Part shown: one piece after another, positions 48,758-62,259 of the stretch
How the letters are laid out: every line of letters begins with the position of its first letter
Position numbering within the stretch: the stretch's first letter is position 1
Source: Candidatus Aenigmatarchaeota archaeon
GTDB taxonomy: Archaea; Aenigmatarchaeota; Aenigmatarchaeia; GW2011-AR5
Assembly (NCBI GenBank): GCA_016180945.1
Contig: JACPAG010000001.1
Span: 133,856-197,855, forward strand
Length of the DNA stretch: 64,000 nt
Direction of reading: 5' to 3'
Position numbers and translations under genes: made by a program
The notes under the pieces: model-generated
The model's input: the letters and a program-made list of their open reading frames with translations, nothing else
What the model was told of the DNA's origin: nothing
Database searches by the model: none

Positions 48758-48845
48758 AGAATAAAATATGAATATTTATGCATTTTTGCATAAGAGAAAG
48801 AACTAGCTTTTTAAATCATTCTTCGAAAATATTTTTGGTGATTGG

Positions 48846-50061
48846 ATGAAAACTTATGTTACAAGCGAAAGCGTCACAGAGGGTCACCCGGACAAAATCT
48901 TTGAGTGAAATGCTCAGGATGTCCAAAATCTGTGACCAGATAAGCGACGCAATTCTTGATGAATTGTTTAAGCAGGACCCGTATTCCCGTGTTGCTGTGG
49001 AATGCCTTACAACAACCGGTCTGGTTGTCGTCGCCGGTGAAGTCACTACAAGAGGCTTTGCAGATGTCCAGAAAATCGCAAGGCAGACATTGAAAGAGAT
49101 AGGTTACACAGACCCTACTTACGGCATAGATTGTGAAGACGCCGGCGTTCTTGTTTCCATCCATGGCCAGAGCCCTGATATTGCGCAGGGCGTCAACGAA
49201 GGCGAAGCAGCCGGCAAAGAATCCAAGGAACAGGGCGCAGGAGACCAGGGCATGATGTACGGTTTTGCAACCAGCGAAACGCCGGAACTGATGCCGCTTC
49301 CTATCATGCTTGCGCACAAATTAACAAGAAGGCTGTCTGAAGTGAGGAAAGCAGGTCTCATAGACTGCATCGGCCCGGACGGAAAATCTCAGGTCACGAT
49401 AGAGTACGACGATGGCGTCCCTAAAAGGGTCGAAGCAGTTGTCGTGTCTGCCCAGCACAAGCACGATGCAGCAATAGATAACGTAAGAAAAGAGATACTG
49501 GAAAAAGTGATAAAACCCGTATGCGGATACATGATGGACGAAAACACAAAAGTTCATATAAACCCCACAGGTAAATTTGTGATAGGAGGACCGGAAGGCG
49601 ACTCCGGCGTTACAGGCAGAAAAATAATTGTTGACACGTACGGTGGCATCGGCCGCCACGGGGGCGGCGCATTCAGTGGCAAGGACCCGACCAAAGTCGA
49701 CCGTTCAGGCGCATACGCGGCAAGATACGTAGCCAAGAATATTGTAGCAGCCGGCCTTGCGGACAAGTGCGAGGTGCAGGTTGGCTATGCAATCGGCGTT
49801 GCCAAGCCGCTGGCAGTTAACGTGGACTGCTTCGGCACCAACAAGATACCCGAAAGCAGGATAGTCGAGCTCGTGAACAGGCACTTTGACCTGAGGCCAA
49901 AAGCCATTATTGAAATGCTCAATCTCAGAAGGCCGATATTCAGAAAAACGACATGCTACGGGCATTTCGGCCGCAACGACCCGGACTTCACTTGGGAAAA
50001 GACAGACAAGGCGGAAATATTGAGAAGAGAAGCGCTGGCCATTAAAGAAGCCGCAGTATAG
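48846..50061 (+). CDS. metK: S-adenosylmethionine synthetase (bacterial type), split by a 31-nt intron: join(48846..48895,48927..50061), 394 aa
   Basis: Spliced N-terminus [24 protein letters not shown]; GAGDQG and GGGAFSGKD motifs; GGTGA SD before the ATG. Confidence 0.92.
48896..48926 (+). other. BHB-type intron in the metK mRNA
   Basis: Central helix GGAC/GTCC, two AAA bulges, inner hairpin, in-frame TGA if unspliced. Confidence 0.85.
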
Positions 50062-54574: not shown

Positions 54575-54692
54575 CGCTGGGAGAGAGATTTGAACTCTCG
54601 TGTGCTTTCGCACACAGGTTGTTTACAAGTCGTTTTCCGCAGAAAAGGGCTGTAGCAAACCTGCGCCTTGGACCAGACTTGGCTATCCCAGC
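54575..54692 (-). tRNA. tRNA-Ser(GCT) with a 32-nt 37/38 intron (54621-54652)
   Basis: Long variable arm, G73, BHB central helix TTGC/GTAA. Confidence 0.9.
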
Positions 54693-61075: not shown

Positions 61076-61841
61076 CCACGGATAAACCTTTTATACTTTA
61101 AGTTGAGTATTATAGCTGTTTTTTGGGATGTGGATTTGACAATCCATATCGAACGGGCGCAAGGTTTGGCAGTTAATTCTTTGCGTAAACTTTACCGATG
61201 AGACTCAATACTCATACGTTCCGTGGAGATAGAATCTTGCGGAATTTGAGTCTGCAGCACAAGGCGTTGTTTTAGACATTGGGCAAAGCCCATCTATGAA
61301 AAAACATTTCAGGCTGCAGAAAATCGTGAAGGCGTGATTGGAATAGTTATGCCAGATGGAAGCACGAATAGGCAGAACACTATCAGAGATGATAGGGAAA
61401 AGTGTAGTAGTTCTCCCAACAATTCCGGTTGATCCCGCCGGAGACTACCATTATCAGGATTCGGCTAAGCCATGCGAAGCAGAGCCGCAAGGCTCGCTGT
61501 ACTGCTCAGTAACGCGTAGTTAACCTGCCCTTAGCAAGGGGATAACCGCGCGAAAGTGCGGATAATACCCTATAGGCAATAATGGCTGGAAGGCCTCTTT
61601 GCTGAAAGCCGCAAGGCAGCTAAGGATGGGACTGCGTCGGATTAGGCTGATGTTAGGATAAAAGCCTAACATACCTGTAATCCGTACGGGTCGTGAGAGC
61701 GATGGCCCGGAGATGGTTTCTGAGACATGAAACCAGGTCCTACGGGACGCAGCAGGTACGAAAACTTCGCAATGCATGAAAGTGCGACGAGGGGATCCTG
61801 AGTGGGTTCGACTTTGTCGAACTCTTTTGTCTACTGTAAAA

Positions 61842-61891: not shown

Positions 61892-61930
61892 AGGTAGGCG
61901 AATAAGGGGTGGGTAAGACGGTTGCCAGCC

Positions 61931-61960
61931 TATTGGCTAGGTTTTCTAGCCAGTCTGGAA
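61931..61960 (+). other. 16S BHB intron 2 (30 nt)
   Basis: Helix CCAG/CTGG; splicing restores CCAGCCGCCGCGG. Confidence 0.9.
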
Positions 61961-61969
61961 GCCGCGGTA

Positions 61970-62104: not shown

Positions 62105-62145
62105 ATCACCGCAGGAATTTTTCGAAATTCCTGCGAAGACACTAA
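62105..62145 (+). other. 16S BHB intron 4 (41 nt)
   Basis: Helix GGTG/CACT, two AAA bulges; restores GGTGAAATC. Confidence 0.88.
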
Positions 62146-62259
62146 ATCTGGCAGCAAACTGTCAGGCTTGCTGGAGATACTATCAGACTCGAGACCGGGA
62201 GAGGTCGATTGTACGGGATGGGTAGGGGTAAAATCCTTTAATCCATTCAGGACAACCTG

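Follow-up and report, generated by a model that had tools for sequence, protein, structure and literature searches.

The window analysed here, a stretch of 64,000 nucleotides of archaeal DNA that forms part of contig C8 of a draft genome (987,615 bases on 9 contigs, estimated to be 83.65% complete), contains metK, a gene for a bacterial-type S-adenosylmethionine (SAM) synthetase, whose coding sequence was found to be interrupted close to its 5' end by an insert of 31 nucleotides (nt). An initial annotation of the window had proposed that this insert represents a bulge-helix-bulge (BHB) intron removed from the mRNA by the tRNA splicing machinery, and it is this element that is described here. 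The label Candidatus Aenigmatarchaeota was found on the records of relatives sharing the feature. The features of the locus, with the cuts placed by the canonical rule, are the following.

48837..48842, + strand: Shine-Dalgarno-like GGTGAT, 3 nt upstream of the exon 1 ATG
48846..48895, + strand: metK exon 1, from the start ATG through the first two bases of a Lys codon
48882..48887, + strand: GGTCAC within the Gly-His codons, the 5' side of the outer exon-exon helix, pairing with 48932-48937
48890..48893, + strand: GGAC, made up of the third Pro base and the Asp codon, as the 5' side of the 4-bp central helix, pairing with 48921-48924
48894..48896, + strand: 5' bulge AAA, predicted cut between 48895 and 48896
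48896..48926, + strand: predicted intron, 31 nt, whose removal restores GHPDK-ICDQ
48897..48920, + strand: inner hairpin AUCUU.GAGU / loop / GCUC AGGAU of the minimum-energy fold
48906..48908, + strand: in-frame TGA inside the intron, ending translation of unspliced mRNA
48921..48924, + strand: 3' strand of the central helix, GTCC, the intron part, from fold and covariation
48925..48927, + strand: 3' bulge AAA, part of a 2 x 7 internal loop, with the cut predicted to follow 48926
48927..50061, + strand: metK exon 2, the final base of the Lys codon followed by ICDQ...EAAV and the stop
48932..48937, + strand: 3' strand of the outer exon-exon helix, GTGACC (TGT GAC C codons), pairing with 48882-48887

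The interrupted metK gene and the anatomy of its insert

The open reading frame (ORF) beginning at ATG 48846 was found to be ended after 20 codons by the TGA at 48906-48908, and the remainder of metK, 377 amino acids (aa) read from 48928 to a stop codon at 50059-50061, lies out of frame with it, just as the initial annotation had read the locus. Deletion of the 31 nt (48896-48926) joins ...GAC AA to A ATC TGT..., giving GHPDK-ICDQ and a protein of 17 + 377 = 394 aa, the length previously given for it. The junction is ungapped against solved MetK and against intronless orthologues. One such orthologue from a relative (P0002; 78% identical) covers positions 3-99 of the N-terminal domain and is itself ungapped to solved MetK, and since both P0002 and solved MetK align over the junction without gaps, exactly 31 nt are surplus.

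Comparison with Pfam showed that exon 2 matches PF00438 at positions 17-99 of 99, together with PF02772 (1-120) and PF02773 (1-138), both complete, while exon 1 supplies positions ~3-15 of PF00438 that are absent from exon 2, including the N-terminal strand with GHPDK. The longest unspliced ORF was found to lack positions 1-15 of the N-domain, and all three MetK domains (N, M and C) are present once the two exons are combined. Judged by these matches, the predicted spliced product is a SAM synthetase of the bacterial/eukaryotic type (MetK) with its three domains complete; its closest solved structures are those of bacterial MetK. Neither an archaeal-type SAM synthetase (PF01941) nor a second MetK was found in the genome at its estimated completeness. 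As the MetK is of bacterial type and no PF01941 was found, the metK of this lineage was probably acquired horizontally from bacteria. The initial annotation had further held that SAM synthesis depends on splicing, which agrees with the finding of a single synthetase but is tempered by a genome estimated to be just 83.65% complete.

Along the RNA the elements follow one another in the order GGUCAC, CC, GGAC, AAA, hairpin, GUCC, AAA, AUCU and GUGACC. The minimum-energy fold reproduces this layout with one shift, in which GGACA pairs with UGUCC, and both the sequence and the fold bear out the earlier description of the insert as GGAC-AAA-hairpin-GTCC-AAA with outer GGTCAC/GTGACC pairing. In this arrangement the central helix bears on its 5' strand a 3-nt bulge that adjoins the inner helix, with the second site lying 3' of the other strand, and the outer exon-exon helix of six pairs closes the loop four bases beyond the 3' site. 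Forms with a disrupted bulge are termed relaxed or non-canonical in PMC5829648, and in its predicted fold the motif of the insert is a BHB of the relaxed type.

For the intron of cbf5, the cut rule given in PMC2738675 places cleavage between the second and third bulge residues, and this rule was used to delimit the exons. The presence of CAAAATCT both at 48893-900 and at 48924-931 prevents the exact cut from being placed on the window sequence alone; any cut in equal register within the CAAAATCT repeats yields an identical product, and a cut after the third bulge residue gives the same product as one after the second.

The chance rate of such a motif at a fixed site and length was estimated at ~7e-5 per site in this genome, by counting combinations of a 4-bp helix, a 3-nt bulge and at least five inner pairs (148 matches of length 31 in 1,975,230 positions). 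No further copy of the intron sequence was found in the genome. A scan of the window at Rfam gathering thresholds returned only 16S rRNA and two tRNAs, with the insert matching no curated family. A self-splicing group I or II intron was rejected on this lack of an Rfam match and on the length of only 31 nt, which lies far below ribozyme size.

Recurrence, covariation and selection among relatives

Of 70 genomes searched in the order, 43 gave a MetK match, after 41 of 61 in an initial sample, and the metK genes of the order were found to occur in three N-terminal states, namely uninterrupted (29 distinct sequences), with an insert at this site, or with an extra T two codons upstream. An insert of 30-31 nt at exactly the same site was identified in seven genomes of the order (G000, G008, G027, G033, G051, G054 and G058), and the single extra T in five (G020, G032, G036, G046 and G065). 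Scanning all species-representative genomes gave 19 matches, of which seven were archaeal metK genes, with one new carrier among them (L079), and 12 were chance matches in bacteria; among metagenome contigs there were 36 matches, two in metK (L096 and L113) and 34 by chance. A looser pattern matched 37 of the 371 genomes of the phylum. Fifteen of these were metK with the insert, and the other 22 comprised five intronless metK genes (a downstream coincidence), ten sequences shown to be non-metK and seven judged unrelated from the printed match alone. The frequency of 15 in 371 genomes is a lower bound, as the pattern requires a Cys-Asp codon pair 25-55 nt on. With one further metagenome contig (L113) the comparison of metK across relatives, which the initial annotation had suggested as a check, thus yielded a same-site insert of 30-32 nt in 16 distinct carrier sequences. 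The insert is 30 nt long in six, 31 nt in five and 32 nt in five, and these lengths span all three frame classes.

Pairing was assessed in a set of seven sequences, in a plain MAFFT alignment of ten and in an alignment of all 16 guided by a covariance model derived from these ten, with 98.1%, 96.0% and 94.2% (of 240) of cells being paired, respectively. When the 3' partners were slid by 1-3 columns as a control, 20-40% of cells paired, compared with 94.2%, and none of 500 shuffles of the 16 sequences matched the observed pairing, number of doubly changed cells or covariation score. Eighteen cells were doubly changed, against a shuffled mean of 7.0, with both-sided changes at four pairs. The central 4-bp helix is paired in 64 of 64 cells, and its first pair, formed by the wobble base of the Pro codon with the last helix base of the intron, is GC in ten sequences, UA in three, GU in two and AU in one. 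The first five pairs of the inner hairpin are 87.5% paired, three of them changing on both sides (for example UA in 9 and CG in 6). The outer helix pairs at six of six positions in 12 carriers and at five of six in the other four.

The 5' bulge is AAA in all 16 carriers. At the 3' bulge the relatives have AAA (11), ATA (2), TGA (1) or AAG (1), the window having AAA, and the third base of this bulge completes the Lys codon in every carrier. The same geometry was found in two groups whose hairpin sequences, ATCTTTGAGT... and ACCTATTAAC..., are unrelated; in six carriers of other families the hairpin is ACCTATTAAC... or ACATACTAGC... in place of ATCTTTGAGT..., with helices and bulges unchanged. 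The codons GGT (Gly) and TGT (Cys) occur together in 12 of the 16 carriers and in 6 of 29 uninterrupted genes (Fisher p = 0.001, relatedness not corrected), and as the outer helix needs both, their enrichment means that codon choice also points to this helix. Taken at the sequence level, structure rather than sequence is conserved in the insert, with compensatory change.

Several features indicate that the interrupted gene is in use. A stop codon lies in frame at the third or fourth intron codon in 16 of 16 carriers, and a cut after the second bulge base gives GHPDK, then I, L or V, then CD in all of them. In exon 1, 13 of 36 nt sites vary among ten carriers, all synonymously and including AGC/TCN serine switches, such that the 12-residue peptide is identical; a further carrier, G283, has Q in place of E. 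A purine-rich Shine-Dalgarno-like motif, read by eye, precedes the ATG of exon 1 in eight of ten carriers, which argues for translation starting at exon 1. Exon 2 is open in all carriers and 64-82% identical. These substitution patterns indicate that both metK exons are under purifying selection in carriers.

In a tree built from 27 MetK sequences, five state changes, at least four of them forced by well-supported branches, are needed to place the six carriers it contains. Carriers with close insert-free sisters were identified in G008 versus G022 (support 100/98) and G051 versus G005 (100/99). The same mixture is seen within genera, as g9 contains G008 with the insert and G022 without, and g21 contains G051 and G058 with it and G038 without. 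By these state changes and mixed genera, the insert is an element that has been gained, lost or exchanged repeatedly. As a separate observation, G176:C113 (L142), from genus g92 of another family, was found to have a window-type intron and a window-like MetK N-terminus; its metK is identical to that of metagenome contig L096 over the compared stretch, and its congeners G168, G169, G175 and G177 have the other intron type. With a completeness of only 56% for G176, either lateral transfer or mis-binning may account for this.

The extra T lies at a site equivalent to window positions 48885-48896. The pattern GAR GGN CAY CCN T GAY AAR was identified in 20 of the 371 phylum genomes, with none for the reversed control, and the loci concerned are L021, L027, L029, L036, L042 and L119-L130. 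Twelve loci were fetched among the matches of the 20 genomes, of which 11 are metK and one (G141) is unrelated. All 11 metK loci read CAT CCT TGA C, the conserved site being given as CAT CCT TGA CAA. In these the zero frame terminates directly behind GHP, while the +1 frame continues as DK(I/V)(C/A)DQ... for 362-375 codons or off the locus. The +1 site and the intron were never found to coincide, and in the MetK tree the three rows with the +1 site are scattered and need three changes. The sequence CCU UGA C may be a programmed +1 frameshift site at which tRNA-Pro slips at UGA, presumably resembling the programmed +1 sites of the prfB or antizyme kind. A literature search on programmed frameshifting in archaeal metK returned nothing apparently relevant.

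Inteins were also observed in the metK genes of relatives. In G014 (L032 1-2349, minus strand) MetK contains an intein of the LAGLIDADG type at GGGAF|CISGNS...VCHN|SGKDP, and similar in-frame inserts of 0.4-0.5 kaa occur at the same residue, ~250, in G038, G046 and G058, and probably also in L096 and L113. The metK of G058 has both the intein-like insert and the BHB intron, and that of G046 has the intein-like insert and the +1 site.

Splicing enzymes and further probable introns of the host

A single EndA, the tRNA splicing endonuclease, was identified in the genome (205 aa; contig C3:37289-37903, L001:1189-1803; PF01974, 98.7 bits), with both Pfam endonuclease domains present, along with a single RtcB (contig C2; PF01139, 545 bits). 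The best solved relative of this EndA is the alpha4 enzyme of M. jannaschii, with the Tyr and His of the catalytic triad conserved. Six extra residues lie between the catalytic Tyr and His, a length that is ungapped against the catalytic alpha subunit of N. equitans (3iey_A). In PMC5829648 an 'L3' loop in the alpha4 enzymes of several DPANN lineages is described as accompanying more disrupted tRNA genes. The enzyme is 60-80% identical in 27 of 30 relatives searched, the loop is near-invariant in 25 aligned sequences, and throughout the order no variation was seen in the motif RLAHNIRA[RK]ML. By these comparisons the host EndA looks alpha4-like with a Nanoarchaeum-type loop. Separately, the EndA match of G038 was found to be split in two inside one open frame.

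The 16S rRNA gene of the same genome was found to be 3947 nt long against a model of 1478 positions, running from window position 61422 onward and past the window end (contig C8:195277-199223; L061:1501-5447); the 16S genes of relatives range from ~1600 to >3400 nt. Its inserts were located by blastn against the shorter 16S genes of relatives, which replaced an Rfam alignment that had shown a 701-nt stretch as insertion. At least seven BHB-type introns, of 30, 50, 59, 111, 592, 667 and 699 nt, were identified in this way, plus one insert of ~250 nt; the 592-nt intron begins inside the window and ends beyond it. No motif could be assigned to an extra stretch at window positions 62107-62167. Given their absence from the 16S genes of relatives, we infer that these inserts are spliced out. 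In all seven introns a 4-bp helix and a 3-nt bulge are combined with an inner helix of 6-13 pairs, and the adjacent outer helix has 0-3 pairs in six of them and ten in one; the 30-nt intron, located within window positions 61925-61965, like that of metK, is without an adjacent outer helix. Judged by its 16S introns, the host appears to process motifs of relaxed architecture. It had been claimed that cutting after the second bulge base restores all seven 16S junctions. This rule gave the best or equal best match to a 28-nt junction in six of the seven, while the 59-nt intron fits better with the cut two bases over.

Genome-wide, 16 tRNA matches were obtained with Infernal, of which 15 were above the family cut-off and ten of these 15 are 85-184 nt long, which suggests that many of the tRNA genes are heavily interrupted, split or permuted. 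The tRNA counts were taken from Infernal, the intron mode of ARAGORN having been set aside for its many implausible calls. A simple BHB finder recovered no clean motifs in the long tRNA genes, and for this reason the motif was calibrated on the 16S introns instead. One tRNA gene lies in the window and was missed by ARAGORN without its intron mode:

54575-54692, - strand: tRNA gene, 118 nt

A search for further mRNA introns was made by screening the genome for a 4-bp helix, a 3-nt bulge and at least five inner pairs, with a length of 16-150 and with removal fusing open frames. This gave 927 candidates, and 585 in 444 clusters after requiring the downstream frame to be closed upstream, which is about one per gene start. 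Hairpin energy was of no help in the screen (metK itself has -5.6 kcal/mol), and metK ranked 10th of 43 by dicodon coding score and Shine-Dalgarno-like motif. By eye, the other 12 top candidates were rejected as separate adjacent small genes, such as an RHH/PIN-like pair, or as junk frames, and a candidate resembling Ile-tRNA synthetase was found to be a false positive with an intact ORF of 955 codons. The cbf5 gene of this genome (PF01509) is a single uninterrupted open frame. No second convincing mRNA intron was identified in the genome, the screen being dominated by noise and too weak to exclude one; the broader proposal of the initial annotation, that the lineage splices mRNAs widely and that its apparent frameshifted pseudogenes may be intact, gained no second case from it.

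In contig C7, at ~133,900-134,250 on the minus strand, a direct repeat of 18 nt containing a single mismatch, TAGGT(A/G)TCTTATATGTAC, was observed on both sides of ~115 nt that lie between a ribosomal-protein-like gene ending in ...KSEKKK and a gene starting with MYRRRREKKTDYRQRL (L18-like, by eye). An intron, either intergenic or in a leader, may be present here, or else a duplication.

Interpretation and comparison with known systems

It is considered likely, with good confidence, that positions 48896-48926 are an archaeal relaxed-type BHB intron inside the coding sequence of a bacterial-type metK. The recurrence of the insert at the same site, its covariation, the selection on the exons, the presence of EndA and RtcB and the 16S introns all support the removal by the tRNA splicing machinery that had first been proposed. 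Cleavage and ligation of the metK mRNA are what we infer from the anatomy of the insert, its covariation, the selection, the enzymes and the architecture of the rRNA introns. In the pre-mRNA, GGAC (the last base of the Pro codon and the Asp codon) would pair with GUCC at the 3' end of the insert, with the hairpin of the insert and the six-pair Gly-His/Cys-Asp helix holding this 4-bp helix between the AAA bulge and the AAA-containing loop. The single EndA would then cut after the second base of each bulge and RtcB would join the exons, whereupon a ribosome starting at the Shine-Dalgarno-preceded ATG 48846 would read through GHPDK-ICDQ to give the 394-aa MetK. The stop within the intron would confine an unspliced mRNA to a peptide of only 20 residues.

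A number of observations weigh against this reading. The strict hBHBh' definition does not apply to the motif, whose 3' site falls within a 2 x 7 internal loop (a 5-nt loop in some relatives) instead of a closed 3-nt bulge, and alpha4-type EndA has classically been held to need the strict motif. In the EndA itself and in 24 relatives, Ala occupies the place that aligns with the catalytic Lys156 of M. jannaschii, the residue after it being Arg in 22 and Lys in 3 of these 25 sequences. Taken alone, the fold predicted in the window, at -19 kcal/mol, beats its shuffles only modestly (z between -2.1 and -2.3, with 3-6 of 200 shuffles equally stable), and two relatives have z = -0.9 and -1.4. In addition, the sequences are kin, so that the cell counts of the covariation analysis overstate the number of independent events, and the 16-sequence alignment (A3) was fitted to the model structure.

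A wider reading, in which the metK of the phylum would be deliberately gated at one active-site motif by interchangeable devices such that MetK output tracks the state of both RNA processing and methylation in the cell, is regarded as unlikely. The devices would be the intron in some species and the +1 frameshift CCU UGA C in others, the intron being either a second independent solution or a mobile element homing like the inteins at GGGAF/SGKD. Slippage of tRNA-Pro into the +1 frame rises when the SAM-dependent m1G37 methylation is missing, and were the gating reading true the frameshift could sense SAM, with low SAM raising MetK synthesis; the link of the +1 site to m1G37 is speculation.

Alternatives to splicing of the insert were also weighed. 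EndA might cut the metK mRNA without rejoining it, or with only minor rejoining, and so act as a decay or throttle switch like the decay initiated by the tRNA endonuclease in yeast. Cleavage of the EndA type without ligation has been described for yeast mRNAs (PMC10485636), and the relaxed 3' site of metK might be poorly cut. This is nevertheless very improbable: with no other SAM synthetase found, the cell has to produce some full-length MetK; the purifying selection seen in exon 1 and an exact in-frame junction in all 16 carriers would be expected only if ligated mRNA is translated; and RtcB is present.

Very improbable, too, is a broken gene, be it a pseudogene or the downstream ORF used alone from an internal ATG (48919), with or without the 20-residue peptide. 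An ATG or GTG in the frame of exon 2 lies within the insert in all carriers, and gene callers would report a truncated MetK. The ATG is, however, accounted for by pairing, its AU closing the inner helix and its G beginning GUCC, and the in-frame GTG of G054 directly precedes TGA. The GHPDK segment is needed for MetK catalysis, and a MetK without it loses part of the conserved N-domain. Moreover, exon 1 changes only synonymously across ten carriers and has its own Shine-Dalgarno-like motif, exon 2 is open throughout, and a structure-preserving insert at the same site in 16 sequences is unlike decay.

Translational bypass (hopping) in the manner of phage T4 gene 60, with take-off at AAA/AUC, ~31 nt skipped and landing on a matching codon, is accorded very little credence. 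In the window, CAAAATCT at both ends of the insert supplies matched AAA and AUC codons, there is a hairpin and an in-frame stop after the take-off region, and bypass would tolerate gaps of 30, 31 and 32 nt. A matching landing codon, for Lys or Ile, is lacking, however, in three of the 16 carriers (G027, GTCT ATA TTG; G033, GTCC ATA TTG; G054, GTCT TGA GTG), and there bypass fails, whereas the BHB cut leads in every carrier to GHPDK and then I, L or V. Furthermore, the stop lies 3-4 codons past the would-be take-off codon and not adjacent to it, and the covarying pair between the Pro wobble base and the 3' end of the insert is needed by a BHB and unneeded by bypass. An artefact of assembly or sequencing, or a tiny DNA insertion with target-site duplication in part of the population, can be dismissed despite the 8-nt direct repeat flanking the insert in the window and the draft state of the genome in 9 contigs, since 16 different assemblies hold diverged versions at the same site, G027, G033 and G054 have either no such repeat or a much shorter one, and no other copy of the insert exists in the genome.

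If the relaxed-type BHB intron in metK is accepted, it would extend a short list. The initial annotation had stated that archaeal mRNA introns are documented mainly for cbf5 in Crenarchaeota, and PMC7714728 agrees, naming cbf5 as the only BHB intron in an mRNA other than the 46-nt intron it describes in the 5' untranslated region (UTR) of HVO_1309. A literature search outside subscription journals and supplements brought up no mention of an intron in metK or in DPANN protein-coding genes. Documented coding-sequence introns of the tRNA type would accordingly be confined to the cbf5 family in Crenarchaeota, with the Haloferax case in a 5' UTR, and that of metK would be the second. It would be new in coming from a second superphylum, in residing in a horizontally acquired housekeeping gene of bacterial type and in being served by an alpha4-like endonuclease; a 2023 review expects more archaeal mRNA introns to turn up (PMC10485636). 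The 16 variants, with three length classes, two sequence groups and sister species with and without the element, lend themselves to study of gain, loss and substrate rules, and the intron, the +1 site and the inteins in one gene form a compact test bed for interruptions that are resolved in RNA, during translation and in the protein. For annotation this means that metK will be given by gene callers as truncated or frameshifted in these genomes, and metabolic reconstructions may wrongly score SAM synthesis as absent.

Among known systems, gene 60 of phage T4 resembles the metK locus in having a short untranslated gap in a coding sequence, with a hairpin and a stop. That gap is crossed between matched take-off and landing codons; gene 60 needs such codons, which three of the 16 metK carriers are without, and requires no covarying exon-intron helix. 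In the splicing of HAC1/XBP1 of eukaryotes, Ire1 cuts and tRNA ligase or RtcB joins. This is akin to the proposed processing of metK, as a short intron bounded by stem-loops is removed by a protein endonuclease and a tRNA ligase or RtcB with a change of frame, but the nuclease is Ire1 and not EndA, the recognition motif is another one and the splicing is regulated by stress. IRE1-mediated cytoplasmic splicing is named as such in PMC13149111.

A further comparison is with the BHB introns of archaeal tRNA and rRNA, which have the same motif and presumably the same enzymes. They lie in stable RNAs, whereas the metK intron would have to leave an mRNA before or during translation and bears a silencing stop. 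The intron of Haloferax volcanii HVO_1309 is, like that of metK, a BHB intron of similar size (46 nt) in an mRNA, and according to PMC7714728 it is cut in vitro by the splicing endonuclease and its circle is found in vivo. It lies, however, in an untranslated leader and is independent of frame, while that of metK interrupts a codon belonging to an active-site motif.

A close counterpart is the intron of cbf5 in Desulfurococcales and Sulfolobales, described in PMC2738675 as a relaxed ('unconventional') BHB-like intron in a coding sequence, with cuts predicted at the corresponding bulge position. As in metK, its distribution among relatives is patchy, with gains and losses, and its interior is variable while the parts that pair with the exons are conserved (PMC2738675). 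The differences are that cbf5 is an RNA pseudouridine synthase gene of Crenarchaeota, and here the host gene is a bacterial-type metK of a DPANN lineage; that the hosts of the cbf5 intron have the crenarchaeal (alpha-beta)2 heterotetrameric EndA, and here the enzyme is alpha4-like with a Nanoarchaeum-type loop; and that splicing of cbf5 has been shown by cDNA and in vitro cleavage, the metK intron being known from its sequence. On this comparison the metK intron would work like that of cbf5, in another gene, another superphylum and another endonuclease architecture.

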